A stretch of 19,261 bases of DNA from Atribacterota bacterium (lineage in GTDB: Bacteria > Atribacterota > Phoenicimicrobiia > Phoenicimicrobiales > Phoenicimicrobiaceae), in contig JBBRDV010000022.1 in assembly GCA_038203565.1 (NCBI GenBank), forward strand, positions 1 through 19,261, given 5' to 3'. Below the pieces are notes generated by a model. It searched no databases, was not told the origin of the DNA, and saw only the letters and a program-made list of their open reading frames with translations. Shown in pieces: positions 1-19,261 of this stretch. The translations under genes were made by a program, and so were the position numbers. How positions within the stretch are numbered: position 1 is the stretch's first letter; each line of letters starts with the position of its first letter.

Positions 1-99
1 TCAAAAAAATGTGCACCGTACAAAAAATTTCACAAAAAAAAACACTAAAAATTTAAAAAAAATTTTAATGCAAAATTTCGACACCTGACCCCTACACTT

Positions 100-549: not shown

Positions 550-565
550 ATTTTTTCCTTTAAAT

Positions 566-825
566 TAGTCGTTAATAATTAGTCGATAGTATATAGCATC
601 GCGTCAAAATACAGGAAAAATTAGTAGGGGCAGACCTTGTGTCTGCCCGTAATGAGTAAAGAATTTATATTTTTTTATTTTCTTCCTTGCGAAATACTAT
701 ATACTATCGACTATATACTATATTGACTGTTGACTGGTAAACTGGGAAACTGGAAAACTAATATTTTAACTGGTAAATACTAGAATGCGAGATACGAATT
801 ATTATTCACTAACGACTATTCACTA
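566..825. repeat. Nested inverted repeats built from degenerate 7-mer tandem units, plus 8-mer tandem units
   Basis: TAGTCGATAGTATATAG (580-596) is the exact reverse complement of CTATATACTATCGACTA (697-713); TAGTCGTTA (566-574) of TAACGACTA (810-818); 8-mers ACTGGTAA/ACTGGGAA/ACTGGAAA at 733-756. Confidence 0.85.
624..648 (+). repeat. GTAG-family REP-like palindrome
   Basis: GTAG (624-627) directly followed by an 8-bp perfect GC-rich stem GGGCAGAC/GTCTGCCC with a CTTGT loop, in AT-rich intergenic DNA. Confidence 0.7.
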
Positions 826-890
826 TTTTATGTTATCATAATAAAAAAAATTTAACAAATTGAATATTTATAAATTAAAAAAGAAAAAAA

Positions 891-917
891 GAAGGATTTT
901 AAAAATTTTTGTAGAAT
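891..917 (+). promoter_or_regulatory. Putative sigma-H-type promoter upstream of SPOR gene and rex
   Basis: GAAGGATTT-N11-GTAGAAT fits the Bacillus SigH consensus RNAGGAWWW-N11/12-RNNGAAT. Confidence 0.45.
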
Positions 918-1001
918 AATTAAAGTATATTAGTATATAATATAAAAAATACGATATTAACTTTTATCTATTCAAAAGTTAGTATAGGAGTATGATTTAA
1001 T

Positions 1002-1592
1002 ATGAGAAAAGCGAGTAGGATTTATAAGAGGAAAAGCAGAAGTAATCTGGAAACCTTTATTATCTTAATAGGCGCGATAATAATTTTGGGTGTGGCCTTT
1101 AATTTAGCCCGAGATAGGAGTTATATTCCCCCCGAAGAGCCGACCATTGTAGAAGAAGAGAAAGTAGAATCTCCGGTCATAAAAGTACCTGTTGTGCTAC
1201 CCCAAAAAGAAACAGTGGAAAGTATTGGGGAAAAGGAGAAATTTCCTGAGGAAGAAATAAAAAAAGAGATTACTTCAGAAGAGAAGCCGCCACTTACTGA
1301 GCCGAGCGTGATTAAAACTCCAAAAGTGGAAGCAGAAGTAGAAGTAGTAAAGGAATCTGAAGTAGTTTCAGATAAGAAGGTGTATACTGTTCAGGTAGGA
1401 GCTTTTTCGGCTGAACAAAATGCCCAAAATTTAGCTAAAGAGATAAGAGATAAAGGGTACCAGTCTTATGTAGTTAAAGGAAAAACCCTTTATAAAGTAC
1501 AGGTGGGGGAATTTAAAAGCCATGAGGAAGCCCAAAACATATCGCAAAAATTAAAAGAATCAGGGTACCCCATCTTTGTAACAACCAGATAA
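1002..1592 (+). CDS. SPOR-domain membrane protein (FtsN/DedD-like architecture)
   Basis: Basic N-terminal tail, one hydrophobic helix (FIILIGAIIILGVAF), Glu/Pro-rich linker, C-terminal SPOR repeats YTVQVGAF...YKVQVGEF; AGGAG RBS. Confidence 0.88.
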   Translation: MRKASRIYKRKSRSNLETFIILIGAIIILGVAFNLARDRSYIPPEEPTIVEEEKVESPVIKVPVVLPQKETVESIGEKEKFPEEEIKKEITSEEKPPLTEPSVIKTPKVEAEVEVVKESEVVSDKKVYTVQVGAFSAEQNAQNLAKEIRDKGYQSYVVKGKTLYKVQVGEFKSHEEAQNISQKLKESGYPIFVTTR

Positions 1593-1608
1593 GAAAAGGA
1601 AACATAGG

Positions 1609-2244
1609 TTGAAGAATAAGAGCATTCCTTCTATAGCTATCAATCGTTTATCTATTTACCATAGATGTTTGGAAAAAATTTTAGAAACAGAAAAAGGGAA
1701 AGAGTTAGAATTTATTTCTTCGTCTAGAATTGCGGCAATAACCGGTATAAATTCAGCACAAATTCGTAAAGACCTGGCTTATTTCGGAGAATTCGGTAAA
1801 AGAGGACTTGGATATCCTTTAATAGATCTTAATAGAGAATTAAAAAAGATATTAGGATTAGATAAAAAGTGGTCAGTTATCATTGCCGGAGCAGGGAATT
1901 TAGGTAAGGCCTTAGTAAAGTATAAAGGATTTTTAAAAAAGGGCTTTATCATCAGGGGAATTTTCGATAATAATCCCTCAAAAATTGGCAAGAAACTTGG
2001 CCATATTTTTATTTACGATATAAAAGAGATAGAAAAATTTATAAAGGCGAAAAATATAAATATTGGGATATTGGTAGTACCAGCTGATTCAGCCCAGGAA
2101 GTGGCGAATAAAATGGTTGCAGGTGGGATTCAAGCTATTTTAAATTTTGCCCCCGTCTATGTCGTATTATCCCCCGAAATTAAAATACATAATGTAGATC
2201 TATCCATTGAATTTGAAGGGTTGACATACTATTTATCTCAATGA
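1609..2244 (+). CDS. rex: Redox-sensing transcriptional repressor Rex
   Basis: RLSIYHRCL, QIRKDLAYFGEFGKRGLGY winged-helix motif, GAGNLG Rossmann motif, ILNFAP; TTG start with AAGGA RBS. Confidence 0.96.
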   Translation: MKNKSIPSIAINRLSIYHRCLEKILETEKGKELEFISSSRIAAITGINSAQIRKDLAYFGEFGKRGLGYPLIDLNRELKKILGLDKKWSVIIAGAGNLGKALVKYKGFLKKGFIIRGIFDNNPSKIGKKLGHIFIYDIKEIEKFIKAKNINIGILVVPADSAQEVANKMVAGGIQAILNFAPVYVVLSPEIKIHNVDLSIEFEGLTYYLSQ

Positions 2245-2250
2245 TATAAT
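2221..2250 (+). promoter_or_regulatory. sigma70/SigA promoter of the hydrogenase operon
   Basis: TTGACA (2221-2226)-N18-TATAAT (2245-2250) with extended -10 TG at 2242-2243. Confidence 0.85.
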
Positions 2251-2264
2251 ATTTTTGTTTTTTA

Positions 2265-2286
2265 ATTTGTGATAATTATCACAAAT
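2265..2286. promoter_or_regulatory. Rex operator
   Basis: Perfect 22-bp palindrome ATTTGTGATAATTATCACAAAT; core TTGTGA-TAATTA-TCACAA (2267-2284) matches the Rex box TTGTGAA-N4-TTCACAA at 12 of 14 positions; lies just downstream of the promoter and next to rex. Confidence 0.9.
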
Positions 2287-2377
2287 AATTAATAAGGATA
2301 AAAATCATATTTAACCTAGATGAAGAAAGATAACATAAAATAATATCTATAGATGCATTTTAAGAAAGGGGACTATT

Positions 2378-2728
2378 ATGAAAATTAAAGATTTAATTCG
2401 CGTTTTAGATGCGGAAGTTTTATGCGGTGAAGATTATTTAGGTCAAGAAATCACAGACTTTGACGCGAGTGATCTTTTAAGTGATATCTTAGCTTATTCC
2501 AAGGATGACTATATTCTCTTAACCGGTTTAACCTCTTTGCAAGTTGTCCGTACAGCTGAGTTAACTGGAGCTATTGCTATTGTTTTTGTGCGAGGCAAAC
2601 TGCCTCCTCAAGAAGCAATCGGTTTAGCTAAATCTCACCATATCCCCCTTTTAAAGACGGATAACCTGATGTTTGCCTCCTGTAGAAAAATTGTCGAGGA
2701 AATAATAAAAGAAGAGAAGAATAAATGA
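2378..2728 (+). CDS. DRTGG-domain protein
   Basis: 116 aa; ASDLLSDILA, ILLTGLTSLQVVRTAEL, AIVFVRGK motifs of hydrogenase-cluster DRTGG proteins. Confidence 0.85.
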   Translation: MKIKDLIRVLDAEVLCGEDYLGQEITDFDASDLLSDILAYSKDDYILLTGLTSLQVVRTAELTGAIAIVFVRGKLPPQEAIGLAKSHHIPLLKTDNLMFASCRKIVEEIIKEEKNK

Positions 2729-3675
2729 GTGCTAATTATTCCAAAGAAAAGTTAACTTTAGTTAATGAGCTGATTTACCAAATCAAAGTTAAAGAAGCTA
2801 TGTCTAAGAAAGTAATCTTTTTTAGGGAAAATACTACCTTCAGAGAAATTCAATTAAAACTTAAGGAGAAAAAATTTTCTGGAGTCCCTATCCTTGACAA
2901 CGGAAATAATATTGTAGGGATCGTAAGTATTGATGATATTATTACTGCCTTTGATAAGGGTTATGTAGATAATGAAATTTCTGATTATATGAGTAGAGAT
3001 GTAATTACCATACCTCAAAATTTTTCAGTAATTTCGGCAATCAATAGATTAGAAAAATTTAAGGTGGGGCGGCTTCCGGTTACAGAATCTTCAAATAGCA
3101 AAAAAATTGTAGGGGTAATAACTCTGAGTGATATTTTAAATAGATTGTTGGTTGTAGTTCAGTCAATTGCCGAAAAGGTGGAAGATAAAGAAATAAAGAA
3201 TACTCAAATTTCTCATGATTTAATTAAAAGTATTGTAAAAAAGCCGCTTCGCTTTGAAGTTAAGGGAGATGATTTTGACAACGCCGGCAGAGTGGCAAGT
3301 ATAATTAAAAAGTATTTTCAGAACCTGGGAATTAGTAAAGATATTATTCGTAGAATTGCTATTGTTTGCTATGAAGCCGAGATGAATATTTGTCTTCATT
3401 CCCTGGGAGGGAGTATGGCTATCGAGGTTAATAATGATAATAATGCGATAATTTATGCTCATGATAAAGGTCCTGGAATTCCAGATGTTGATCTTGCCTT
3501 AAAACCGGGATTTACCACAGCATCTGAAAAGATCAGGGCTTTGGGTTTTGGTGCCGGGATGGGGCTTCCCAATATTAAACGCTATGCCGATAAATTTGAG
3601 ATTGAATCTTCTTTAAAGACCGGAACAGAACTAAAAGCAATAATTAATTTGGGGGTAAAAAATGAAATTAAGTAA
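2725..3675 (+). CDS. CBS-pair fused to RsbT/anti-sigma-factor-type Ser/Thr kinase (HATPase_c)
   Basis: Two CBS motifs (FSGVPILD..IVGIVSIDDI; VGRLPV..IVGVITLSDIL), then GHKL boxes YEAEMNICLH, DKGPGIPD, GFTTA, GAGMGLPNIKR; ATGA overlap with upstream gene. Confidence 0.88.
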   Translation: MSANYSKEKLTLVNELIYQIKVKEAMSKKVIFFRENTTFREIQLKLKEKKFSGVPILDNGNNIVGIVSIDDIITAFDKGYVDNEISDYMSRDVITIPQNFSVISAINRLEKFKVGRLPVTESSNSKKIVGVITLSDILNRLLVVVQSIAEKVEDKEIKNTQISHDLIKSIVKKPLRFEVKGDDFDNAGRVASIIKKYFQNLGISKDIIRRIAIVCYEAEMNICLHSLGGSMAIEVNNDNNAIIYAHDKGPGIPDVDLALKPGFTTASEKIRALGFGAGMGLPNIKRYADKFEIESSLKTGTELKAIINLGVKNEIK

Positions 3676-4006
3676 AATAGTTAATAAATGCCAATTGGAA
3701 AAAATTGTTTTTTGTACTGACTGCGAAATTGAAAACGGTTATTGTGGAGATTTGATGTCTGATGTTATGGCACATGCTGAAGAAGAATGTATCTGGATTA
3801 CAATCCAGGCGCACAAGAATAGCATAGCGGTTGCCCTTATCAAAGATATTAAATCTATAGTATTTACCAATAATGTAACGGTTGAAAAAGAGGTAATTAA
3901 AAAAGCTGAAGAAGAAAAGATTAATTTACTCCGTACCCGTAAAGATTCTTTTACTGTGTGTGGAGAAATATATTGTATGATGGAGGCTGAAACTGCAAAG
4001 GATTGA
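3662..4006 (+). CDS. DRTGG-domain protein (second copy)
   Basis: 114 aa; GYCGDLMSDVMA, IWITIQAHKNSIAVA motifs. Confidence 0.83.
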   Translation: MKLSKIVNKCQLEKIVFCTDCEIENGYCGDLMSDVMAHAEEECIWITIQAHKNSIAVALIKDIKSIVFTNNVTVEKEVIKKAEEEKINLLRTRKDSFTVCGEIYCMMEAETAKD

Positions 4007-4715
4007 TTTACATATCCATTCTGCTCTTTCGGCTTGCGGTGATGATATTATGTCACCTCAGCTAATTTTAGAGCAGGCTGCTCAGAAAAAGCTTAATCTT
4101 ATATCTATTACTGATCATAATACTGTCGAGCATTCAATTTTAGCCTGCAAGCTGAGCGAAGATATGCCTATTCGAGTAATTCCCGGGGTGGAATTGACCA
4201 GTAGAGAAGAAGTCCATCTCTTAGCTTATTTCCCCAATATAGAAGCAATTTTAAAAATGGAAAAAGAAATAGATAACTATTTACCCGGGAAGAAAAATAA
4301 TTCCAGAGTTTTTGGGAACCAGCTATATTATAATCTCAATGGCGAAATTACCGGAATCGACGATGCCTTAAGACAGGTAGCTTTAAATATAGGATTAGAT
4401 AATCTGGTTGATTTTGTACACAGCATAGAAGGGATTGCCGTTCCTGCCCATATTGATAAAGCTAGATTTAGTTTACTTAGCCAATTGGGATTTTTGGATC
4501 CGGAAGCAGATTACGATGCTATAGAATTTTCTAAGTTCAAATGGAGAAGAGATAAATTTGAATTGGGTTATACCTGGAGCAGTTTTCCGGTAATAGCTGG
4601 TTCAGATAGCCATGGGGTTGAGGATATTGGGCTCTTTTTTATGGAAGACAACCAAGAGGAGATTAATAATTTTACATCTTTGAAAGATTTTTTAAGAAGA
4701 AGTAAACAGCAATGA
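3993..4715 (+). CDS. PHP-domain metal-dependent phosphoesterase (probable CTG start at 3993; first ATG at 4050)
   Basis: In-frame upstream extension reads QRIDLHIHSALSACGDDIMSP (first HxH motif); ITDHN, PGVEL..EEVHLL, PAHID, GSDSH motifs; GGAGG at 3982-3986. Confidence 0.85.
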   Translation: MQRIDLHIHSALSACGDDIMSPQLILEQAAQKKLNLISITDHNTVEHSILACKLSEDMPIRVIPGVELTSREEVHLLAYFPNIEAILKMEKEIDNYLPGKKNNSRVFGNQLYYNLNGEITGIDDALRQVALNIGLDNLVDFVHSIEGIAVPAHIDKARFSLLSQLGFLDPEADYDAIEFSKFKWRRDKFELGYTWSSFPVIAGSDSHGVEDIGLFFMEDNQEEINNFTSLKDFLRRSKQQ

Positions 4716-5266
4716 GAGATTTAGCAGATCATTTATTTGATGTTTTAGAAAATTCTGTAAAAGCTGGAGCTACAGAAGTAAAAATTATTTTAGGAATTAA
4801 GGATAAGCTTTTTTTTTGTAAAATAGTAGATAATGGTAGTGGAATTAAAGATGAAGACGTTACCGATCCTTTTGTAACCTCACGAAAGACCAGGAAGGTT
4901 GGTTTGGGACTCCCTCTTTTAAAGAGAGCAGCAGAAAGCACCGGTGGTTTCCTTAAAATATATAATTCAGAAAAAGGAGGGATTATTTTAGAATTCGAAA
5001 TGGATATGACCCATATTGATGCTAAACCTTTCGGAGATATAGCCAGAACATTTGTAGATGCTATCTACAGTTGGCCAGATGTTGATTTTGAGATATTTAC
5101 AAATATAGAGAATAATAAAAAATTCCCTATTCTTAATAGTAGAAAGATTAAAAATATAGTAAATCAGTATGAGATGCAGCAGAAGGAGATTAGGGATTTT
5201 ATTTATCAATCTATAGATCAGGAGCTTAGAAAAATAGGTATTGATAACCAGTTTGGTATATTGTAA
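4712..5266 (+). CDS. Stand-alone histidine-kinase-like GHKL ATPase
   Basis: N box DVLENSVKAGA, G1 DNGSGI, F box DPFVTSR, G2 VGLGLPLL, HIDAKPFGD; no recognisable sensor or DHp domain. Confidence 0.85.
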   Translation: MRDLADHLFDVLENSVKAGATEVKIILGIKDKLFFCKIVDNGSGIKDEDVTDPFVTSRKTRKVGLGLPLLKRAAESTGGFLKIYNSEKGGIILEFEMDMTHIDAKPFGDIARTFVDAIYSWPDVDFEIFTNIENNKKFPILNSRKIKNIVNQYEMQQKEIRDFIYQSIDQELRKIGIDNQFGIL

Positions 5267-5352
5267 TTTAAAGGAGTCTTTTGGATATTTTCACTAGATA
5301 AATATTTAATTTATTTTATTGTATCTAATATATAAAGATGAAGGAGAGAAAG

Positions 5353-5718
5353 ATGAAGAATTTAGAAGAATTAAAAAAAATTAGAGAGAGAGTAAGAAAA
5401 GATTTAGAATTACGTACCGGAAAGCATCGAATTAAGATTGTGGTTTGTCTGGGGACTTGTGGTATTGCTGCTGGAGCTCGAGAGACCATGAATACCCTTA
5501 TCGATCTTATTGCCAAGAACGATACTTCCGATACCATAGTAACCACAGCAGGGTGTGCAGGTTTTTGCGAACAGGAACCCATGATTCAGCTCTACATAGA
5601 AGACAAGGAGCCAGTTGTTTATGGAAAGGTTGATGCAAAAGCAGCCAAAGAAATATTTGAGAAACACGTTTTAAAAGGCGAAATTGTAGAAAAATATCTT
5701 TTTTCAAAGGGGAAGTAA
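5353..5718 (+). CDS. Thioredoxin-like [2Fe-2S] ferredoxin subunit (HndB/HydD-like)
   Basis: IVVCLGTCGIAAGARE...TAGCAGFCEQEPMI; AAGGAG at 5341-5346 favours the ATG at 5353 over 5338. Confidence 0.88.
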   Translation: MKNLEELKKIRERVRKDLELRTGKHRIKIVVCLGTCGIAAGARETMNTLIDLIAKNDTSDTIVTTAGCAGFCEQEPMIQLYIEDKEPVVYGKVDAKAAKEIFEKHVLKGEIVEKYLFSKGK

Positions 5719-5720
5719 TT

Positions 5721-6212
5721 ATGGGATGTCTTTGCAATGAAAAAGAACTTACTGATGAGCAAAAGTATAAACAACTCAAAGAATTTATTGATGAAAATAA
5801 AAATAAGAAAGGTTATTTAATACCGGTACTCCATACGGCGCAGGCAATATTTGGATATCTCCCGCCAGAAGTACAGAACTTTGTGGCTAAAGAGATGAAT
5901 ACCCCAGTGAGTGTAGTTACCGGAGTAGTTACTTTTTATTCTTATTTTAAGATTTTTCCAGCCGGCAGACACACAGTTACCGTATGTTTAGGAACAGCCT
6001 GCTACGTTCGAGGTGCGAAAAAAATATTAGAAGAACTTGAAAAAAAAATGGGCATAAAAATTGGAGAAACTACTGAAGATAGAAGGTTTTCTATGGGAGT
6101 GCAAAGATGTCTGGGGGCTTGTGGATTAGCTCCAGTTATTATGATCGATAAAGATGTCTACGGTCGGATGTCAGCAAAAAAATTAGATAAAATTTTAGAA
6201 CAATACAAATAG
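5721..6212 (+). CDS. nuoE: NuoE/HydC-like [2Fe-2S] subunit (NuoE-1)
   Basis: LIPVLHTAQAIFGYLP, VVTFYSYF, VCLGTACYVRG, RCLGACGLAPV. Confidence 0.93.
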   Translation: MGCLCNEKELTDEQKYKQLKEFIDENKNKKGYLIPVLHTAQAIFGYLPPEVQNFVAKEMNTPVSVVTGVVTFYSYFKIFPAGRHTVTVCLGTACYVRGAKKILEELEKKMGIKIGETTEDRRFSMGVQRCLGACGLAPVIMIDKDVYGRMSAKKLDKILEQYK

Positions 6213-6232
6213 ATAAGGCAGGGAATATTAAT

Positions 6233-9200
6233 ATGTATAATTTAAGAGCACATGTTTTGCTTTGTTATGGAGGTGCCTGTATTTCTTCGAACGCAGGTAG
6301 CGTTAAAGAAGCAATGGAAAAAGCAATAGCAAAAGCAGGACTTCAAAATGAAGTTGATGTTGTAACTACCGGATGTATGGGAACTTGTGAGCTGGGCCCG
6401 ATTATGGTTATCTATCCGGAGGGAGTATTCTATCAGAAGGTTAAATCCGAAGATGCTGAAGAGATTGTCCAGGAACACTTGTTAAAAGGCAGAGTTGTTA
6501 AACGTCTATTCTATAAAAAACCGAAAACTGAAGAAATGATAGAAATGTTTAATGATATAGATTTCTTCAAACTACAGAAGAAAATAGCTCTTCGGAATTG
6601 TGGAATTATCAATCCCTTGGAAATTGAAGAATATATAGCTGCTGATGGATATATGGCTTTAGGGAAAGTGCTGACCGAAATGACCCCGCAGCAAGTAATT
6701 GAAGAGATGAAAAAATCAGGTCTGAGGGGACGAGGCGGGGCAGGATTCCCTACCGGTTTAAAATGGCAATTTACTGCTGCCTCACCAGGCAAACAAAAAT
6801 ATGTATGTTGCAATGCAGATGAAGGTGATCCCGGTGCCTTTATGGATAGGAGTATTTTAGAGGGAGACCCCCATAGTGTAATGGAAGCTATGATGATCTG
6901 CGGATATGCTATAGGCGCGGATCAGGGATATATATATGTTAGGGCTGAATATCCTTTAGCTGTGGAGAGGTTATCGATTGCTATTGAACAAGCGAAAAAG
7001 AATGAACTTTTAGGAAAAAATATTTTAGGGACTGATTTTAATTTTGATATAGAAATAAGAATGGGAGCAGGCGCTTTTGTCTGCGGTGAAGAAACCGCTC
7101 TAATGCGTTCTATAGAAGGGAAGAGAGGAGAACCTCGTCCAAAACCTCCTTATCCCGCTCAAAAGGGATTATTTGAATGTCCTACAGTATTAAACAATGT
7201 TGAGACATTTGCCAATATCCCCTATATAATTTTAAATGGCGCTGATGATTTTGCTTCTGTAGGGACTGAAAAGAGCAGAGGAACAAAAGTATTTGCTTTG
7301 GCAGGTGATATAAATAACACTGGACTTATTGAAGTTCCTATTGGAATGCCTTTAGGAACAATTATCTATGATATCGGAGGAGGAATCCCCAATAATAAAA
7401 AATTAAAAGCGGTACAGATCGGCGGTCCTTCGGGAGGTTGTATACCTACTGATCATCTGAACGTAAAAGTGGATTATGAGTCATTACAAGAACTTGGAGC
7501 AATTATGGGTTCAGGTGGATTGATTGTCATGGACGAAGATACCTGTATGGTTGATTTAGCCCGTTATTTTATGGAATTTATCCAGGAAGAATCGTGTGGT
7601 AATTGCACCCCTTGTCGTCAAGGGACGCGGATTATGTTAAATATTTTGGAGCGAATCTGTCAGGGAAAAGGAAAAATGGAGGACCTGGATATTCTGGAAG
7701 AATTGTCTGAGCAGATAAAACAGACTTCTTTATGTGGTTTAGGACAGACCGCACCTAATCCGATTATTGCAACTTTAAGATATTTTAGAGACGAATATAT
7801 TGAACATATTCGTGATAAAAAATGCCGGGCAGGAGTATGTGCAGAACTGGTGTACTCTCCATGCTCTAATGAATGTCCGGCTTCGGTAAATGTACCTGGA
7901 TATCTTGCTTATACCAAGGAAGGTAATTTTAAAAAAGCTCTAGAAATACATTTAAAGAATAATCCGTTTCCTGCAGTCTGTGGACGGGTATGCCCTCATC
8001 AGTGTGAAGCTAAATGCAGAAGAAACGATCTCGATTCGGCGGTCAGCATTCGTTCTGTCAAACGATTTATGGCTGATTCAATAGATGATTATCTAAAATG
8101 TTTCCCTGAAAAACAAAATTCTAATGGAATTAAGGTAGCAGTCATTGGTTCAGGTCCATCTGGATTATCTAATGCTTATTTTCTTACTATGCTGGGATAC
8201 GAGGTTACTGTTTTTGAGTCCGAAGCTAAAGCTGGAGGCATGCTTACCTATGCTATCCCTTCATATAGACTTCCTAAAAATATAGTGGAAAAAGAGATTC
8301 AAGCCTTATCTCGATATGGGGTAAAGATAAAAACTAATTCTAAAATTGGAAAAGATATAACCATTAATGAACTCAAAAAACAAGGGTTTAAGGCCTTTTA
8401 CATTGCTATAGGAACAGGGGATTCAATTATGCCTGCAATTGAAGGGATAGATGGCAATAATAGAGTTATAAGCGGGTTAGATTTTTTGTATAAAATCAAT
8501 AATAATGAAAAAATCTCTGTTGGCCAGGAGGTAGTAGTTATTGGAGGAGGGAATACTGCTATTGATGCAGCCAGAACTGCCAAGAGAATGGGGGCAGGTG
8601 TAACCATAGTATATCGCCGAACCAGAGAGGAAATGCCAGCTGAGATAGAGGAAATTAAAGAGGCAGAAAATGAGGGAATAAAAATACAACTCCTTCAAAA
8701 TATTAAATCCGTTAAGTCAAACTCTAACAATAAGTTAGCAGTTGAATTCCTGAATATGCGGCTTAGTGAATTTGATAAATCTGGTAGACGAAGACCTGTG
8801 GAAATAGAAGCTTCTTTGTTTACTAGAGAAGTTGATCTATTGATTTTAGCCATTGGTCAAAAACCATCTCTGGGACACTTATTTGATAAAGAGGCGATCA
8901 AGCTTAATAGAGATGGAACTATCTTTTGTCATTCCCATAAAGGAGAGACGATGTCAGAAGATATCTTTGCTGGTGGTGACGTGGTGACTGGTCCTTCTAC
9001 TGTAGTGGAGGCAATCGGGCAAGCACAGAGGGCAGCTGAGGCCATAGATAAATATTTAACCGATGGCCGAAAGGAATATCCCTGGAATATAATGGATGAA
9101 ATCGAAGTGAAGTTTGATCCGGAAGAAGAACCGGTAGATTATGAGCGGGCAAAAAATATAATAATTCCAGTAGGAGAAAGAGATTCTTTTACCGAAGTTG

Positions 9201-9280
9201 AAAAGACCTGGGACAAGGTAACTGCTTGTAAAGAAGCAGATAGATGCCTGCGTTGTGAGTTTAAGAAAGAAGAGGAGTGA
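6233..9280 (+). CDS. NuoF/HydB-like FMN-NADH subunit fused to GltD/NfnB-like FAD-NAD(P)H oxidoreductase
   Basis: aa 1-541: [2Fe-2S] CYGGAC..CMGTC, GRGGAGFPTG, NADEGDPGAFMDR, AFVCGEETAL, GGPSGG, ESCGNCTPCR..CGLG, HIRDKKCRAGVC; from aa 542: SPCSNECP..CGRVCPHQCEAKC, GSGPSG, IPSYRLPK, GGGNTAID..YRR, FAGGD, C-terminal EADRCLRC. Confidence 0.93.
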   Translation: MYNLRAHVLLCYGGACISSNAGSVKEAMEKAIAKAGLQNEVDVVTTGCMGTCELGPIMVIYPEGVFYQKVKSEDAEEIVQEHLLKGRVVKRLFYKKPKTEEMIEMFNDIDFFKLQKKIALRNCGIINPLEIEEYIAADGYMALGKVLTEMTPQQVIEEMKKSGLRGRGGAGFPTGLKWQFTAASPGKQKYVCCNADEGDPGAFMDRSILEGDPHSVMEAMMICGYAIGADQGYIYVRAEYPLAVERLSIAIEQAKKNELLGKNILGTDFNFDIEIRMGAGAFVCGEETALMRSIEGKRGEPRPKPPYPAQKGLFECPTVLNNVETFANIPYIILNGADDFASVGTEKSRGTKVFALAGDINNTGLIEVPIGMPLGTIIYDIGGGIPNNKKLKAVQIGGPSGGCIPTDHLNVKVDYESLQELGAIMGSGGLIVMDEDTCMVDLARYFMEFIQEESCGNCTPCRQGTRIMLNILERICQGKGKMEDLDILEELSEQIKQTSLCGLGQTAPNPIIATLRYFRDEYIEHIRDKKCRAGVCAELVYSPCSNECPASVNVPGYLAYTKEGNFKKALEIHLKNNPFPAVCGRVCPHQCEAKCRRNDLDSAVSIRSVKRFMADSIDDYLKCFPEKQNSNGIKVAVIGSGPSGLSNAYFLTMLGYEVTVFESEAKAGGMLTYAIPSYRLPKNIVEKEIQALSRYGVKIKTNSKIGKDITINELKKQGFKAFYIAIGTGDSIMPAIEGIDGNNRVISGLDFLYKINNNEKISVGQEVVVIGGGNTAIDAARTAKRMGAGVTIVYRRTREEMPAEIEEIKEAENEGIKIQLLQNIKSVKSNSNNKLAVEFLNMRLSEFDKSGRRRPVEIEASLFTREVDLLILAIGQKPSLGHLFDKEAIKLNRDGTIFCHSHKGETMSEDIFAGGDVVTGPSTVVEAIGQAQRAAEAIDKYLTDGRKEYPWNIMDEIEVKFDPEEEPVDYERAKNIIIPVGERDSFTEVEKTWDKVTACKEADRCLRCEFKKEEE

Positions 9281-9282
9281 GT

Positions 9283-9747
9283 ATGACAGTAAAAGAGATT
9301 ATTAACAAGTATGGAAATAAAAGAGAAAATTTATTACAGATTTTGCATGATATTCAAAATCAAAGCCTCCAGAATTATATTAATGAAAAAGAGGTTAATT
9401 TATTAAGCAAGGAAATGAAAATACCAGTATCTGATATTAAAGGGACTGCTTCTTTTTACACCATGTATAGTTTTATCCCTCGTGGTAAATATATAATCAG
9501 AGTTTGCGAGAGTCCTCCCTGTCACTTATTAGGTGCACAAACGATTTTTAAGGCTATAGAAGCTAAATTAGGCATTAAAGAAGGGGAGACAACCAAAGAC
9601 GGACTTTTTACCTTAGAAGGGACTAGCTGTTTGGGAATTTGTGGGGTAGCTCCGGCTATGATGATTAATGAAGAAGCCTATGGTAATTTAAATGAAGAAA
9701 AGATCGGAAAAATATTGGACCAAATTCAAGAAAAGGAGAGTAATTAA
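9283..9747 (+). CDS. nuoE: NuoE/HydC-like [2Fe-2S] subunit (NuoE-2)
   Basis: LLQILHDIQ, TASFYTMY, VCESPPCHLLG, TSCLGICGVAP; GAGGAG at 9272-9277 favours ATG 9283 over GTG 9277. Confidence 0.92.
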   Translation: MTVKEIINKYGNKRENLLQILHDIQNQSLQNYINEKEVNLLSKEMKIPVSDIKGTASFYTMYSFIPRGKYIIRVCESPPCHLLGAQTIFKAIEAKLGIKEGETTKDGLFTLEGTSCLGICGVAPAMMINEEAYGNLNEEKIGKILDQIQEKESN

Positions 9748-9749
9748 TT

Positions 9750-11393
9750 ATGTCAAAAAGAAGTATTGCGCAGATTTTAGTGGGTATTGATGGAAATACT
9801 GTCCTTTCCGGTGCAAGGAAGATAAAGACCAAGCTGATTACCGAAATAAATAAACAAGGTCTTTCCGATCAAGTTTCGGTAATCGAAACCGGCAGTATTG
9901 GTCCTATTAATAAAGGAGTGGTCATAGGTATTTATCCAACGGGTGAAATGTACGGAAATGTGACTGAGAAAGATATTGCTGAATTTGTTCAGGAAAAATT
10001 TGTCAAAGGCAGACCTTATAAAAAATTACTGTTAGAAGAAAAAATGCAACCAGAGATAGATTTGAAAACCTATGATTCCAGAAAAACCCAATATTTCGGG
10101 CGAATCGTCCTGGACAACTGTGGGAAGATTAACCCGGAAGATATTGAAGAATATATCGGAATGGGTGGTTACCAGGCATTAGGGACAGTCTTAAAAGAAA
10201 AAACACCAGAAGAAGTTATTCAAATAATGAAGAACTCTGGACTCAGAGGAAGAGGTGGTGCTGGATTTCCCACCGGCTTAAAATGGTCTTTTGCAGCCCA
10301 GGAAAAAGAAAGTCCAAAATATGTTATTTGCAATGCAGATGAAGGAGAACCGGGCACTTTTAAGGATCGATTAATTATGGAAGGAGATCCCCATAGAGTT
10401 TTAGAAGGGATGGCTATCTGCGGATATGCTATTGGGGCGAATACCGGTTATATTTATATTCGAGGAGAATATCAGCTTTCTATTCAAAGGTTAGAAAAAG
10501 CCATAAATGATGCGGAAAAATTAGGCCTTTTGGGGAAAAATATATTTGGAACTGATTTTGATTTCAAGGTCAAGATTAAGATGGGAGCAGGTTCTTATGT
10601 TTGCGGAGAAGAAACCTCTCTCTTAAATTCTATGGAGGGTTTTAGGGGAGAGCCAAGATTAAAACCACCTTTCCCTGCTAAATCAGGGTTTTTATCCAAA
10701 CCTACTAATGTGAATAATGTAGAGACCCTGGCTAATATTGCTCCTATTATTTTGAATGGCGCTGAATGGTTCAAAAAATTTGGGACAGTAGATTCACCGG
10801 GGACCAAAGTTTATACTATTTTGGGACATGTCAATCGTTCTGGCTTAATAGAAGTTCCCATGGGGATTACCTTAAGAGAAGTTATTTATGATTATGCGGG
10901 AGGTATTTCTTCCGGAGAATTTAAAATGGCTCAAATAGGAGGCACTGCGGGAGATATTCTTTCTGCGGAACTTTTGGATGTAGCACTTGATTATAAATCC
11001 CTTCAAGAAGTAGGGCACAACCTCGGCTCCGGAGCCATATTAATTATGAATGATTCAGTTTCGGTAGTAGATTTTTTAAAGTGCTGTATGAAATTCTTTA
11101 TGCATGAATCCTGTGGTCGATGTTCTGTGTGTCGAATTGGGACTAAGCAGATGTATGAATCTTTTAATCGTTTAGAAAAGAAAGAAGCATATTTTGACGA
11201 ACTTAAAAATATAGAAGAATTAGCCAAAGGACTTAACTTAGCTTCTTTTTGCCCTCTTGGTCAATCCGTTGCTTCTCCTGTTCTTTCTGCTATAAAGTAT
11301 TTTGAAGCAGAATTGTCGGAAGGTATAAATCCGAATAAAATTCATGAACCGGTCACCAGGGAAGAAAGTGGCATAGTATTCAGTTATTCTTAA
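9750..11393 (+). CDS. nuoF: NuoF/HydB-like FMN-NADH subunit, short non-bifurcating type (NuoF-2)
   Basis: GRGGAGFPTG, NADEGEPGTFKDR, GSYVCGEETSL, GGTAG, ESCGRCSVCR..CPLG; no C-terminal ferredoxin domain. Confidence 0.92.
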   Translation: MSKRSIAQILVGIDGNTVLSGARKIKTKLITEINKQGLSDQVSVIETGSIGPINKGVVIGIYPTGEMYGNVTEKDIAEFVQEKFVKGRPYKKLLLEEKMQPEIDLKTYDSRKTQYFGRIVLDNCGKINPEDIEEYIGMGGYQALGTVLKEKTPEEVIQIMKNSGLRGRGGAGFPTGLKWSFAAQEKESPKYVICNADEGEPGTFKDRLIMEGDPHRVLEGMAICGYAIGANTGYIYIRGEYQLSIQRLEKAINDAEKLGLLGKNIFGTDFDFKVKIKMGAGSYVCGEETSLLNSMEGFRGEPRLKPPFPAKSGFLSKPTNVNNVETLANIAPIILNGAEWFKKFGTVDSPGTKVYTILGHVNRSGLIEVPMGITLREVIYDYAGGISSGEFKMAQIGGTAGDILSAELLDVALDYKSLQEVGHNLGSGAILIMNDSVSVVDFLKCCMKFFMHESCGRCSVCRIGTKQMYESFNRLEKKEAYFDELKNIEELAKGLNLASFCPLGQSVASPVLSAIKYFEAELSEGINPNKIHEPVTREESGIVFSYS

Positions 11394-11482
11394 GAGTAAG
11401 CTTAAGTTTAATTATTTTAGGATAAGCATAAAAGATACTTATAAATAAAATTATCAATAAACAATAAGAAGGAGAGGGGTTA

Positions 11483-13255
11483 ATGGCAAATATTACCATA
11501 AATAATATGAAAGTTGAAGTACCAGAAGGCACTACTATTTTAGATGCTGCCAAAACAATTGGTATAAAGATACCTACTCTGTGTTATCTTAAAAATGTTC
11601 AAGAGCCAGGATCATGTAGAATGTGTCTTGTGGAGGTTGAAGGGGCTAAAACACTTCAGCCCTCTTGTGTAACACAGGTTTCAGAAGGTATGAAAATCCA
11701 TACCAATACTAAAAAAATAAGAGATACCAGAAAGATTATATTGGAATTGCTTTTAAGTGATCATCCCTGGGAATGTAATACTTGTGATCGTAATCAGGAC
11801 TGTGAACTACAAAAATTAGCAGATGAGTATGGTATTAAAGAAGTTAGATTTCAATCCGTGAAGGAAAGATTGCCTTTAGATGAAAGTACTCCCGGTATTG
11901 TGAGGGACCCGAACAAGTGCATTTTATGTCGAAGATGTGTTACTGTATGTCAAGAAGTTCAGGGAGTGGGTACATTGGCTCCCAGAGCTCGTGGTTTTAA
12001 TACAATTATTGCTCCCGGACAAGGCAATTTATTAAGTGAAGCCGTATGTGTTCAATGCGGACAATGTGCCGCTGTTTGCCCTGTTGGAGCAATAACAGAG
12101 AAAGATGATATTGATAAAGTATGGGAGGCCCTTGATGATCCGAATAAATATGTGGTTGTCCAAACTGCTCCCGCGATAAGAGCTGCTTTGGGTGAATGTT
12201 TTGATTTAGAACCAGGTACTTTAGTTAAAGGTAAAATGACTGCTGCTCTTAAAATGTTAGGATTTAATGCTGTGTTCGATACTAATTTTACAGCTGATTT
12301 AACTATTTTGGAAGAAGGCACAGAACTTCTTACCAGACTAAAAAAAGTACTGGTCGATAAAGATAAGAAGGTAGCTTTGCCAATGTTTACTTCCTGTTCA
12401 CCGGGATGGATAAATTATATGGAAAATTTTTATCCTGAGTTAATTCCTAATATTTCTACTTGTAAATCTCCTCAGCAGATGTTTGGAGCGGTAGCAAAAA
12501 CCTATTATGCTAATAAAATTGGAAAGAAAAAAGAAGAGATAGTAGTAGTATCTATAATGCCCTGTACCGCTAAAAAATTTGAATGTAACCGAGAAGAAAT
12601 GAACGCGAGTGGAGTTAAAGATGTAGATTATGTGTTAACTACCAGAGAATTAGGAAAATTTATTAAACAAGCAGGAATAGATTTTGTTAATCTTCCCGAT
12701 GAGGAAATGGATGCACCTATGGGCATATCTACTGGTGCTGCCGATATTTTTGCCAATACCGGAGGAGTTATGGAAGCTGCTCTTAGAACGGCATATGAGA
12801 TTGTGACTGGAAGAGAAATTCCTTTTAATGGATTACATGTTTCCTCGGTCCAGGGACTTGATGGCGTAAAAGAAGCATCACTAAAAATTGATGGAACCAA
12901 AGAAGAATGGGCTTTCCTGGAAGGTGTTACGGTAAATGTTGCAGTTGCCCATGGATTGGGAAATGCAAAAAAGGTCATCGAGAAAGTCTTATCCGGCGAA
13001 AAACAATATCATTTTATTGAAATAATGGCTTGTCCGGGTGGGTGTATTGGTGGTGGTGGTCAACCCAGGATGACTACCGATGAAGTAAGGCAAGCAAGAA
13101 TTAAAGCCATTTACAAGGAAGACGAAGGAAGAAAATATCGTAAATCACATGAAAATCCAGCCGTAAAAGCACTTTACGAAGAATTTCTTGTGAAACCACT
13201 TGGAGAAAAATCACATCATTTGCTTCACACGAAATATTCAAGTAAAAAAGATTAA
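11483..13255 (+). CDS. hydA: [FeFe]-hydrogenase catalytic subunit, group A (HydA/HndD-like)
   Basis: H-cluster motifs TSCSPGW, MPCTAKKFE, EIMACPGGCIGGGGQP; N-terminal [2Fe-2S], His-ligated [4Fe-4S] (HPWECNTC..C) and 2x[4Fe-4S] (CILCRRCVTVC, CVQCGQCAAVCP); C-terminal RKSHENP..HHLLHT. Confidence 0.97.
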   Translation: MANITINNMKVEVPEGTTILDAAKTIGIKIPTLCYLKNVQEPGSCRMCLVEVEGAKTLQPSCVTQVSEGMKIHTNTKKIRDTRKIILELLLSDHPWECNTCDRNQDCELQKLADEYGIKEVRFQSVKERLPLDESTPGIVRDPNKCILCRRCVTVCQEVQGVGTLAPRARGFNTIIAPGQGNLLSEAVCVQCGQCAAVCPVGAITEKDDIDKVWEALDDPNKYVVVQTAPAIRAALGECFDLEPGTLVKGKMTAALKMLGFNAVFDTNFTADLTILEEGTELLTRLKKVLVDKDKKVALPMFTSCSPGWINYMENFYPELIPNISTCKSPQQMFGAVAKTYYANKIGKKKEEIVVVSIMPCTAKKFECNREEMNASGVKDVDYVLTTRELGKFIKQAGIDFVNLPDEEMDAPMGISTGAADIFANTGGVMEAALRTAYEIVTGREIPFNGLHVSSVQGLDGVKEASLKIDGTKEEWAFLEGVTVNVAVAHGLGNAKKVIEKVLSGEKQYHFIEIMACPGGCIGGGGQPRMTTDEVRQARIKAIYKEDEGRKYRKSHENPAVKALYEEFLVKPLGEKSHHLLHTKYSSKKD

Positions 13256-13358
13256 GAGATTTAGTGTTAATATTTTAAAATAGAATAAAGAATAATTATT
13301 GATAACCTGCGAGAGAGGAAAAATATTTCTAACCTTAAGGGGAAATCGTAAATTTCCG

Positions 13359-13427
13359 AAATAATTAAAGGGGTTTAATTATCTTACCTTGAGCTAAGAA
13401 ATCAAACCCCTTTAATTATTTATTTTT
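13359..13427 (+). terminator. Long stem-loop, probable intrinsic terminator or attenuator between hydA and the ECF gene
   Basis: AAATAATTAAAGGGGTTT (13359-13376) perfectly complements AAACCCCTTTAATTATTT (13404-13421); inner ATT/AAT and TCTTA/TAAGA pairs; followed by ATTTTT. Confidence 0.65.
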
Positions 13428-13458
13428 AAAAAATTTATTAAAAGGGGGAATAATTTAA

Positions 13459-13971
13459 ATGGAAAATAATAAAATCAAATTTATTACTCGGACTGGAATA
13501 TTGTTAGCGGTAGCTTTAGTTATTCAGATGGGGGGATTACCTCAGCCGATAACCGGTCCGCTAATTAACACAGTACTTTATCTTTCAGCCTTATTGGTTG
13601 GAAGTGGGAGTGGAGTCATTATCGGTGTTTGCACACCGGTTATTGCTTTTATGAGGGGTATTTTACCAGCACCCTTGGGCCCGATGATTCCGTTCATTGC
13701 TTTGGGCAATGGTGTTTTAGTGTTTGTTTTTAGTTTATTAAAAGGAAAAAATAAAATATTGGGAATTATTTTGGCATCTTTAACAAAGTACGCAATTTTA
13801 GCTGTCACAGTTAAATTTATTGTAGATGTACCTGACAAGATAGCTCAACTTATGAGTTTACCTCAATTGTTTACTGCTCTATCCGGTGGAGTAATTGCTA
13901 TATTGGCGTATAAAGTTTTGTGGGTTATCGGTATAGATAGAGCAAAAGAATTCCCAGAAGATAAAAAATAA
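13459..13971 (+). CDS. ECF transporter S component (substrate unknown)
   Basis: 170 aa, highly hydrophobic, about 5-6 helices; ITRTGILLAVALVIQ, ITGPLINTVL, TPVIAF..GILP..PMIPFIALGN pattern of ECF S components. Confidence 0.8.
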   Translation: MENNKIKFITRTGILLAVALVIQMGGLPQPITGPLINTVLYLSALLVGSGSGVIIGVCTPVIAFMRGILPAPLGPMIPFIALGNGVLVFVFSLLKGKNKILGIILASLTKYAILAVTVKFIVDVPDKIAQLMSLPQLFTALSGGVIAILAYKVLWVIGIDRAKEFPEDKK

Positions 13972-13989
13972 TAACCATCATAAGATTTT

Positions 13990-14018
13990 TTGGATTATAT
14001 CTCTTTATAAGATATAAT
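13990..14018 (+). promoter_or_regulatory. Putative sigma70 promoter of the FDH unit overlapped by a palindromic operator
   Basis: TTGGAT (13990-13995)-N17-TATAAT (14013-14018); inverted repeat ATTATATCT-N7-AGATATAAT at 13994-14018. Confidence 0.5.
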
Positions 14019-14158
14019 TAGTTCGTATAGGGAATTTATATTCGCTTTCAAGGGGTGTTGCAAGTCAAGCAGAGCTTGCCAAAGCTACACTCAATGATAA
14101 ATATTAATAATAAGAAGATAAAGATTTATGGAGTCCTATTAGGAAATGGAGAAAAAAA

Positions 14159-14653
14159 ATGGAACAGCAGATTGATAATTTGTTGGAAAAATTTAATCTT
14201 GAGCAAGTAGATGGATTAAATGAAATTATTGAAAAATACAGAGTGGATCCGGGAGGAATAATACCCTTACTGGAGGAAGCTCAGGATCTCCTCGGATACC
14301 TGCCCATTAATATCCAGAAACAAATATCTGATAAAACTAATATTTCTTTAAGTAGAATTTATGGAATTGTAACCTTTTATTCATTCTTTACCATGACCCC
14401 TCGAGGTAAACACACTATCCAGGTATGTTTGGGTACAGCTTGTTATGTCAAGGGAGGCAAGAAAATTGCAGAAATAATTGAGAAAGAATTTGAAGTAAAA
14501 CCCGGAGAAACTACTACTGATAGAAGATTTACTTATGAAACGGTAAGATGTCTTGGGGTTTGTGGATTAGCCCCGGTAATAGTTGTTGATGGAGAAGTTT
14601 ATGGGAAAGTTCAGTCTTCGAAGGTTGAAGAGATATTAGAACAATATAAATAA
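14159..14653 (+). CDS. nuoE: NuoE-like [2Fe-2S] subunit of formate dehydrogenase complex (NuoE-3)
   Basis: IIPLLEEAQDLLGYLP, IVTFYSFF, VCLGTACYVKG, RCLGVCGLAPV. Confidence 0.93.
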   Translation: MEQQIDNLLEKFNLEQVDGLNEIIEKYRVDPGGIIPLLEEAQDLLGYLPINIQKQISDKTNISLSRIYGIVTFYSFFTMTPRGKHTIQVCLGTACYVKGGKKIAEIIEKEFEVKPGETTTDRRFTYETVRCLGVCGLAPVIVVDGEVYGKVQSSKVEEILEQYK

Positions 14654-14685
14654 CGGTTAAGGTTGAGATAGGAAAGGAGAAGGCT

Positions 14686-16446
14686 GTGAGAAAAATAAAG
14701 ATAGAAGATTTAATAAAAATTAAAAAGCATGCCTTAATTAATAGAGAACTATCAGAAAAAGGAATAAAAATAAGAATAACTGTCCATATGGGCACCTGCG
14801 GCATTGCTTCAGGTGCCCAAAATATTATGGATGCCCTGATAAAGGAAATTGAGAAAGGAAAACAAAAAGATATTGCTATTATCACTTCTGGTTGTATGGG
14901 GTTGTGCAGTAGAGAGCCTTTAATTACTGTGGAGATATTTGGGCAAGAACCAATCATTTATCAGTATATGGATAAAGAGAAGATATTGGAGGTTTTTAAA
15001 AAGCATATTTTAGGGGGAAAAGTCCTTGCTGGTTATGCCTTGGCCAGGGGAAAAGAAGAGCAAATCAAGGAGAGAATCAAACACAACGGCAATTTGCCAA
15101 ATGAAATTGTATTGGATAGAACCATACCGGGTATTGAAGAAATCCCCTTTTTTTCAAATCAAGAAGTAAGAGTATTGAAAAATCGCGGGGTAATTGATCC
15201 GGAAAAAATTGAAGATTATATTGCCAGAGATGGATATAGGGGAATGGCTAAAGCTCTAACAGAGATGACCCAAAAAGAAATTATTCAGGAAATTTTAGAT
15301 TCGGGATTAAAAGGAAGAGGCGGAGCCGGTTTTCCAACAGGGCTCAAATGGAAATATGCAGCTTTATCGGAAAGTAAAATCAAATATATTGTCTGTAATG
15401 CCGATGAGGGTGACCCTGGTGCTTATATGGATAGAAGTATTTTAGAGGGTGACCCCCATTCTATTATTGAGGGAATAGTTATTGCGGCTAAGGCTGTAGA
15501 TGCTCATCATGGATATATCTATTGCCGTGCAGAATATCCCTTAGCCATAAAAATGTTAAATAAAGCTCTTGGTCAAGCCGAAGAATTCGGTCTTTTAGGC
15601 AAGAATATTTTAGGAACAGGATTTGATTTCGATTTAAAAATTTGCCGGGGAGCAGGGGCTTTCGTTTGTGGAGAAGAAACTGCTTTAATGAGATCTATTG
15701 AAGGAAAAAGGGGCATGCCCCGACCCAGGCCGCCTTTCCCCGCTCAGGCTGGGTTATGGGAAAAACCCACAATTTTGAATAATGCAGAAACATTAGCTAA
15801 TGTTGGCCAGATAATTTTAAAAGAAAGTTCTTGGTTTGCTAATATAGGAACAGAAATTAGTAAAGGTACCAAAGTATTTGCTCTTACCGGTAATGTAAAT
15901 AATGTGGGATTAGTGGAAGTCCCTATTGGAACGACTTTGGCTAAAATTGTCTACGATATTGGTGGTGGAATACCTGAAGGTAAAAAATTTAAAATGGTAC
16001 AAATAGGGGGACCTTCAGGAGGATGTATTCCTACTGAGCATCTTAATACTCCTATAGATTATGACACTATGAAAAAATTAGGAGCGATTATGGGTTCTGG
16101 TGGTTTAATTGTGATGAATGAGGATAAGTGTGCGGTGGATATAGCCCGCTTCTTTATGGATTTTTGTCAAGAAGAATCTTGTGGTAAGTGTACTCCCTGT
16201 CGTGAAGGGACAAAAAGGATGGCAGAGGTTCTTACTAATATTTGTGAGGGAAAGGGGAAAGAAGGAGATATTGAACTTTTAGAAGAGATGGGAGAAGTCA
16301 TCAAAGATGCTTCCCTTTGCGGCCTGGGTCAAACAGCTGCTAATCCGGCATTAAGTACCATCCGTTATTTTAGGGAAGAGTATGAATCCTATATTAAAAA
16401 TAAAAAACGTTCAGTATCTTCCAGGCGTGTTTTCAAGCCTTTCTGA
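14686..16446 (+). CDS. nuoF: NuoF-like FMN-NADH subunit of formate dehydrogenase complex (NuoF-3), with HndB-like N-terminal domain and truncated C-terminus
   Basis: GTG start with AAGGAG RBS; HMGTCGIASGA..GCMGLC, GRGGAGFPTG, NADEGDPGAYMDR, AFVCGEETAL, GGPSGG, ESCGKCTPCR..CGLG. Confidence 0.92.
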   Translation: MRKIKIEDLIKIKKHALINRELSEKGIKIRITVHMGTCGIASGAQNIMDALIKEIEKGKQKDIAIITSGCMGLCSREPLITVEIFGQEPIIYQYMDKEKILEVFKKHILGGKVLAGYALARGKEEQIKERIKHNGNLPNEIVLDRTIPGIEEIPFFSNQEVRVLKNRGVIDPEKIEDYIARDGYRGMAKALTEMTQKEIIQEILDSGLKGRGGAGFPTGLKWKYAALSESKIKYIVCNADEGDPGAYMDRSILEGDPHSIIEGIVIAAKAVDAHHGYIYCRAEYPLAIKMLNKALGQAEEFGLLGKNILGTGFDFDLKICRGAGAFVCGEETALMRSIEGKRGMPRPRPPFPAQAGLWEKPTILNNAETLANVGQIILKESSWFANIGTEISKGTKVFALTGNVNNVGLVEVPIGTTLAKIVYDIGGGIPEGKKFKMVQIGGPSGGCIPTEHLNTPIDYDTMKKLGAIMGSGGLIVMNEDKCAVDIARFFMDFCQEESCGKCTPCREGTKRMAEVLTNICEGKGKEGDIELLEEMGEVIKDASLCGLGQTAANPALSTIRYFREEYESYIKNKKRSVSSRRVFKPF

Positions 16447-16559
16447 TATGTAATTAGACTTGGGGCTGATGTGATCTTGAGATAGAAGATTAAGAAAATA
16501 AAAAATATTTTTTAATTATTTAAAAAACAAGAGTTTTTGAAAACAGGAGGAGAAGAGTA

Positions 16560-19259: not shown

Positions 19260-19261
19260 TA

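Follow-up and report, generated by a model that had tools for sequence, protein, structure and literature searches.

How can one [FeFe]-hydrogenase serve two sets of NADH-oxidizing subunits, one of which carries an added site for NADP(H), in an uncultured, sediment-type bacterium whose genome gives no match to the maturases HydE, HydF and HydG? This question is raised by a locus at positions 5353–13255 of a 19,261-nucleotide stretch of DNA from an Atribacterota bacterium (GCA_038203565.1, contig JBBRDV010000022.1, positions 1 to 19,261), which is referred to here as the window. An initial annotation described the locus as a six-subunit hydrogenase and left three options: one hybrid complex, two alternative diaphorase modules sharing one HydA, or a transhydrogenase made alongside an NADH-only hydrogenase. 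The answer that fits best, and which is held tentatively, is that two heads alternate on a single HydA. The first would form H2 from NADH and NADPH together, the second from NADH alone, and the diiron cofactor of HydA would depend on a downstream protein with the fold of an energy-coupling factor (ECF) S component.

The six genes are real and are conserved in the Atribacterota class JS1, which holds the nearest relatives of the locus. All six open reading frames (ORFs) were found on the + strand and the domains ascribed to them were confirmed. They encode an HndB/BfuD-like thioredoxin-fold [2Fe-2S] protein (5353–5718; Cys 37, 41, 73 and 77 of a 126-residue ORF), NuoE1 or BfuC with [2Fe-2S] cluster C1 (5721–6212; domain and motif matches), a BfuB::NfnL fusion of 1015 residues (6233–9280), NuoE2 (9277 or 9283 to 9747; 38% identical to NuoE1), NuoF2 (9750–11393) and HydA (11483–13255). 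The gaps between them are, in order, 2, 20, −4 (with a GTG start) or +2 (with ATG), 2 and 89 nucleotides. The longest ORF of the first gene begins at 5338, yet the ATG at 5353 is preceded by AAGGAG and the orthologues are mostly 121 residues long. Six genes therefore stand, while "six-subunit" counts genes rather than demonstrated subunits, and the unit runs on to a seventh, linked gene at 13459–13971. A synteny search showed that the fusion lies with hydA elsewhere and that the order hndB-E1-fusion-E2-F2 is seen again in many genomes, so the arrangement is not due to chance. The genome is 99% complete and contains one HydA and three NuoF homologues, every one of them inside the window.

The fusion is divided into a HydB core (residues 1–541) and a StnC/NfnA-type domain (residues 542–1009). 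Residues 4–541 align to the HydB of A. mobile with identical numbering and have A202, M204, F282 and GGPSG, so that the Bfu-type residues at FMN (flavin mononucleotide)/B1 and the F/A/M residues are present. These are the marks of the bifurcating type as given by Losey 2020 and Schut 2022. The B2/Zn ligands (C438, H525, C531 and C536) are in place, as are the cysteines of the N-terminal cluster B5 (C11, C16, C48 and C52). In all 46 fusion rows, which come from 44 distinct loci, A-F-M, the F and the B2 ligands are kept.

The C-terminal part departs from the Bfu family of Schut 2022, in which B3 and B4 form a 2x[4Fe-4S] ferredoxin-docking domain. Here, an NfnL-like domain with a pair of [4Fe-4S] clusters, plus FAD (flavin adenine dinucleotide) and NADP(H), stands in place of that tail. 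PF14691 is matched at residues 532–617 and PF07992 at 634–931, which fits the sub-type I domain definition described below, and it most resembles the domain that holds FAD and NADPH in Csac NfnA and StnC. The first ligand of the new clusters, C544, comes 8 residues after the last B2 ligand, C536. K610 is aligned with K170 of Csac NfnA and StnC, which is reported to be a ligand at their non-bifurcating FAD site; P. furiosus NfnL has Glu there. A pattern search matched Lys at this position in 41 of the 46 rows and matched nothing in the other 5. The window fusion thus has Lys where NfnAB-type FAD bifurcation goes with a Glu on the FAD-proximal cluster. With this replacement, the fusion is not a canonical Bfu member and is best described as a bifurcating-type HydB with a predicted StnC-type NADPH/FAD tail.

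The tail also varies within the class. In 5 JS1 genomes, the same slot holds a BfuB of 597–604 residues with a genuine ferredoxin tail, and in a quick tree these sequences branch among the fusions at two distinct positions. The NADP domain and the ferredoxin domain can therefore replace each other as the tail of one orthologue. Separately, two loci of a JS1 genus (L060 and L061) encode, ahead of fdhA, a 594-residue chain in which NuoE and NuoF are fused and whose signature is mixed (T/K together with GGPSG).

The second head is of another type. NuoF2 has T/K and Tyr and lacks GGPSG; its thioredoxin domain is without Cys, the B2 ligands are lost and B1 alone is kept. These residues agree with the non-bifurcating signature of Losey 2020 (T/S and K/S/A at 232/234, Tyr at 367, no GGPSG), as they do in 23 of 23 rows. 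HydA belongs to group A3/A6 by its motifs and family profile, passing NCBIfam NF040763 (group A6) with 903 bits against a cut-off of 765. It has four accessory clusters and intact H-cluster motifs P1–P3, with the Ser variant of P1 that is shared with A. woodii HydA1, and its nearest structures are 8a6t and 7q4v. The motifs thus support what was first proposed for the locus, which is two FMN/NAD sites, one FAD/NADP-type site and an H-cluster with no ferredoxin-docking domain.

How the heads relate to HydA is suggested by the gene orders of relatives. The fusion lies directly upstream of HydA in 16 loci, of which L053 is one and the other 15 are outside JS1, and of FdhA in 7; it thus lacks E2-F2 in 23 loci. 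Where E2-F2 comes after the fusion, the next gene encodes HydA in the window and 13 further loci, and FdhA in 8. Locus L080 reads hndB-E2-F2-hydA, with neither E1 nor the fusion. FdhA takes the HydA slot in close kin, and in the quick tree the two closest relatives of the window fusion have different alpha subunits, HydA in L013 and FdhA in L004. The relatives thus present a modular kit in which, as far as gene order can tell, either head can serve an alpha subunit. Because each head can be found with an alpha subunit in the absence of the other head, the gene orders are best read as two alternative heads on one HydA, and of the three options first offered, the second fits best. In an observation apart from this, four unclassified bacteria (L005, L007, L012 and L041) have the cassette at 75–90% identity, with HydG present and the S-component gene absent; L005 and L007 nest among JS1 sequences in the tree, and lateral transfer is possible.

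In the proposed mechanism, NuoE1 with the fusion and NuoE2-NuoF2 would alternate on HydA. The first head would couple the oxidation of NADH and NADPH to H2, with NADPH replacing ferredoxin (NADH + NADPH + 2 H+ → 2 H2). Here, the FMN-B1-C1 centre would confurcate, and the low-potential pair would pass from NADPH to FAD and on to two clusters tethered at the usual place of B3 and B4. The second head would make H2 from NADH alone, at very low H2. NADPH has an E' of −370 to −380 mV. With this potential, the computed equilibrium H2 was 3 Pa for NADH alone versus 99–146 Pa for the coupled reaction. The E' of NADH is −280 mV (PMC9304861). The genome encodes an NfnAB-like pair and an Mbh-like cluster (contig C47), and no RnfC was found in it above cut-off; an NADH/NADPH valve of this kind would therefore spare ferredoxin for ion pumping. 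The only sizeable RnfC-like match is below cut-off and inside a microcompartment cluster, and Rnf was accordingly rejected. An Mbh and a bifurcating Fdh are reported for JS1 in a JS1 genome paper.

The other half of the question concerns maturation. Motifs P1–P3 are those of an active group A3 hydrogenase, and the genome, at 99% completeness, gave no match to HydE, HydF or HydG. The same holds for the class: none of the three was matched in any of the 52 JS1 genomes, of which 23 reach 90% completeness or more, in a search that detected the named controls. A HydG match is present in 30 of the 34 other genomes of the phylum. HydA itself is matched in 22 of the 52 JS1 genomes and is not in 30. 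Its active-site motifs are kept in 18 JS1 sequences, the ratio of nonsynonymous to synonymous change (dN/dS) in the H-domain is 0.03–0.10 in 9 of 10 pairs, the remaining pair being saturated, and the H-domain is conserved at least as strongly as the N-terminal wire. A similar gap is known in archaea, where 5 of 130 hydA-bearing genomes have full maturases, where the maturase-less enzymes are reported active once chemically matured, and where the gap is acknowledged as an open question (PMC11216029).

A candidate for the missing step lies downstream of hydA. The gene at 13459–13971 (+ strand) encodes an ECF S-component-fold membrane protein, HymD/Hyd6TM-like, with PF12822 above cut-off. The structure model has six helices in the S-component fold at a predicted local distance difference test (pLDDT) score of 88, and the 13 best-ranked Foldseek rows are all ECF S components (template modelling (TM) scores of 0.5–0.66, E values of 0.015–0.21), with RibU at the top. 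Two PF02361 genes in the genome are candidates for the EcfT partner, and their pairing with the S protein is putative. In the Atlas, a link runs from the window protein to a 'HymD' cluster (0.91), and a relative with 38% identity is linked to archaeal clusters (0.93). Compared with Hyd6TM, the motif pattern agrees by eye; the other links are indirect (the Atlas and P0379).

In JS1, the S gene follows the distribution of hydA and not that of the flavin heads. It was found in 23 of the 52 genomes, 21 with hydA and two in which it lies near a contig start; hydA is present without it in 1 genome and neither gene in 28. It is adjacent to hydA in 21 of 21 cases, 270–878 bp past the hydA match and on the same strand. 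The single JS1 genome with hydA and no S gene (G034) has a distant HydA (54%). In eight genomes (L069–L072 and L075–L078), hydA and the S gene form a free-standing pair apart from any nuoE or nuoF. The flavin head is then elsewhere, beside fdhA or, in L056, without an alpha subunit, which suggests assembly in trans. The S family was not found in JS1 genomes that have FdhA only and keep all three flavin sites. In five outside genomes with the same cassette, whose assemblies are incomplete, HydG was matched in 5 of 5 (4 over cut-off) and the S family in 0 of 5. The diiron cofactor would probably depend on this protein, which may be an importer of the H-cluster diiron unit or of a precursor.

The conserved signal between hydA and the S gene is a TM1266-like gene. 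It occurs in 10 of the 52 JS1 genomes, directly before the S gene in 10 of 10 and between hydA and the S gene in 9; the window is without it. A long hairpin lies there in the window (13359–13421, + strand), at the spot that the TM1266-like gene occupies in many relatives. The gene stands before the S gene in L009 (10281–10550), L013, L018–L022, L080 and L059, and the TM1266-S pair is also seen in L140, L151, L194, L196, L200 and L204. A riboswitch before the S gene was rejected, as neither the window stretch nor any of 10 loci gave an Rfam match that reached the gathering score.

Several observations weigh against the proposal as a whole. The reach of the bulky NADP domain to C1 and B2 is predicted, as is the pairing of each head with HydA, which was read from the genes. 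In NfnA, the same domain is reported to feed the mid-potential branch through A3, implying no bifurcation, and the literature search found no assay of any enzyme with the fusion. One fusion (L010) is broken into two ORFs, one JS1 hydA (L013) is split over two frames, and the genomes compared are related rather than independent samples. Outside JS1, 29 of 34 sister-class genomes have the S family, which is beside hydA in 0 of 10 inspected; in Clostridia (301 genomes, one not scored), HydG was found in 44 of 68 carriers of the S family versus 148 of 232 non-carriers. The S family as a general marker of maturase loss is ruled out by these Clostridia and sister-class counts.

The strongest rival bears on the S protein, for which a role other than cofactor import has a substantial chance of being correct. 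It would then be a membrane anchor of the hydrogenase or an importer of some general nutrient, for example riboflavin or lipoate. The protein resembles those annotated 'HymD subunit', and HymD is presumably an anchor. RibU is its top fold match, and presence of the S family shows no anticorrelation with HydG in Clostridia. In two sister-class loci (L167 and L168), the S gene is downstream of lipA-like and lipoate-ligase (lplA)-like genes, and lipoate is a candidate substrate; in Clostridia (L173–L175, L201 and L203), the S-family gene often adjoins a cysteine-desulfurase-like gene. Against this, the JS1 gene tracks hydA rather than the flavin heads, and it was found neither in FdhA-only JS1 genomes with three flavin sites nor in the five outside genomes with a HydG match. 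The S gene also adjoins hydF or TM1266-like genes: among 32 Clostridia S loci inspected, 5 are beside one of these, and 4 are directly after hydA, 3 of those genomes being without HydG and HydF matches. The S gene of G322 is not beside hydA and was left out of the hydA-adjacent count.

For the first head, the main rival is an enzyme that does not couple, which we regard as unlikely. The NADP domain would sit on a mid-potential chain, as in NfnA and StnC, and the complex would be an uncoupled H2:NADP+ and/or H2:NAD+ oxidoreductase. The reported path in Csac NfnA, FAD-A7-A6-A3, fits this, loss of B3/B4 accompanies loss of bifurcation in the characterised enzymes as described, and the hexameric hydrogenase of M. 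thermoacetica is reported to reduce NADP+. However, the bifurcation-type residues and B2 ligands are intact in every fusion row, the same slot can hold either the NADP tail or a true ferredoxin tail, and C544 comes 8 residues after C536; these observations argue against the rival.

A hybrid complex, the first of the options initially offered, is less probable still. Here, the two heads would sit on separate protomers of a HydA dimer joined through a His-ligated cluster, so that H2, NADH and NADPH meet. Protomers of T. maritima HydABC are reported to connect at 8.8 Å through the His-ligated A4 cluster, the ligands of such a cluster (H94, C98, C101 and C107) are present in HydA, and the genes are tightly coupled. 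Dimers would thus allow the option, but each head is also found with an alpha subunit where the other head is lacking, and thus neither depends on its counterpart.

It is very doubtful that HydA is apo in JS1, serving as an iron-sulfur scaffold or persisting as a relic while the heads work mainly with FdhA. The class-wide lack of HydEFG matches, the use of the slot by FdhA in close kin and the 30 genomes without hydA speak for it. The conserved motifs, the dN/dS of at most 0.10, the constraint on the H-domain relative to the wire and the eight free-standing hydA-S pairs speak against it, as does the reported activity of chemically matured archaeal enzymes (PMC11216029). Least probable of all are a stand-alone transhydrogenase of HndB, NuoE1 and the fusion beside an NADH-only hydrogenase, the third option of the initial annotation, which has both nucleotide sites on one chain in its favour and is disfavoured by the 23 loci and L080 and by the HydA or FdhA that follows the fusion in every locus long enough to judge, and a second bifurcating centre at the added FAD, as suggested by Zheng & Huang (PMC11406978), where K610 is instead the Lys ligand of the non-bifurcating StnC/NfnA site.

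The flanking genes bear on regulation. The product of 1609–2244 (+ strand; PF06971 and PF02629) is an NADH/NAD+ redox-sensing repressor, which we take to be Rex. A sigma70-type promoter-like site with 12 of 12 consensus positions, a pattern match, lies at 2221–2250 (+ strand), followed at 2267–2284 by a perfect palindrome that is the sole exact copy in the genome. Among 22 related loci, the palindrome is exact in 17, has one mismatch in 2 and was not found in 3; it fits the Rex operator consensus. Rex would turn the operon on at high NADH. Domain matches identify five accessory genes at 2378–5266 (+ strand; DRTGG, CBS+HATPase, DRTGG, PHP and HATPase), a block that stays with the cassette where FdhA replaces HydA and is therefore not tied to the H-cluster.

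Downstream, domain and sequence matches define a nuoE3-nuoF3-fdhA unit (14159–19259, + strand), with a Cys-type FdhA whose N-terminus shares 48% identity with the HydA N-terminus. NuoF3 stops at 586 residues without a ferredoxin tail, which the orthologues in L009 and L013 retain; therefore none of the three NuoF homologues of the genome can dock ferredoxin. In L083, after 6510, the NuoF3 orthologue has 1061 residues and is possibly a second fusion. A NiFe-hydrogenase maturation protease gene adjoins the operon, and an Mbh-like cluster is on contig C47 (window 100–549, − strand; L208).

If correct, the proposal would matter in several ways. Ferredoxin is on the low-potential branch in all the characterised Bfu enzymes found in the literature, and an NADPH-terminated one would be new bifurcation chemistry, with the ferredoxin-tailed orthologues in the same slot as a ready natural control. 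It would explain NADH disposal with ferredoxin spared in JS1, which is abundant in anoxic sediments. A bacterial class with a conserved HydA, no HydEFG found and a tightly linked S-fold gene makes cofactor import directly testable. In the widest form of the idea, which we consider somewhat unlikely, JS1 would be H-cluster auxotrophs: they would have lost HydEFG and would obtain the [2Fe] unit, or a precursor late in its synthesis, from the surrounding community by way of an ECF S component dedicated to this task (HymD/Hyd6TM). Such import would account also for the maturase-less hydrogenases of DPANN archaea, and the matured enzyme would form H2 from NADH and NADPH by confurcation, with no ferredoxin involved.

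Compared with known systems, the fusion is not new: such a chain has been described in silico as the BfuB of sub-type I BfuABC(D) group A3 [FeFe]-hydrogenases, defined without assay (Zheng & Huang 2024, PMC11406978). Shared with sub-type I are the replacement of B3/B4 by DPD_II and an FAD/NAD(P) domain, the HndB-like BfuD, Ser in P1 and an M3a HydA; different here are the inserted non-bifurcating NuoE/F pair, the HydA/FdhA swap and a class without maturases. The main text of PMC11406978 has no mention of 'atribacter', 'NADP' or 'maturase'. Full-text literature searches, with subscription papers and the supplements of PMC11406978 outside their scope, did not turn up any account of the two-head arrangement, of the lack of maturases in JS1 or of an ECF S-component identity for HymD/Hyd6TM. 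Bifurcating HydABC/Bfu enzymes (A. mobile 7t2r, A. woodii 7q4v, T. kivui 8a6t) share the BfuB core residues, BfuC and, for the last two, the nearest HydA structures, whereas here their ferredoxin-docking domain is absent. StnABC/NfnABC (8oh5, 9bov, 9n5u) share the FAD/NADP domain with its Lys-ligated cluster. In those enzymes, the domain is in an alpha subunit without an H-cluster and serves as the third site for a substrate, and a BfuB with B3/B4 continues to use ferredoxin, whereas here it is on the beta-subunit tail and the alpha subunit is HydA or FdhA. NuoF2 has the three sequence features of the non-bifurcating NADH-dependent beta subunit and lacks B2–B5 (Losey 2020), but its HydA gene is shared with a second head and a Cys-less thioredoxin domain is kept.

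The hexameric HydABCDEF of M. thermoacetica reportedly contains a pair of NuoE/F-like sets and lacks a GltD fusion. It is likewise a six-gene [FeFe]-hydrogenase linked to NADP(H), and the purified enzyme is described as NADP+-reducing (Rosenbaum & Muller 2024). Hyd6TM was described as an uncharacterised membrane protein of 4–6 helices within three genes of hydA, among 32 archaeal table rows, in archaea mostly without maturases (Greening et al. 2024, PMC11216029); neither 'ECF' nor 'transporter' appears in that main text, whereas here the S-component fold is shown and the link to hydA is tested in a bacterial class. The locus is thus a real and conserved variant that combines known parts and raises an unexpected puzzle about maturation.

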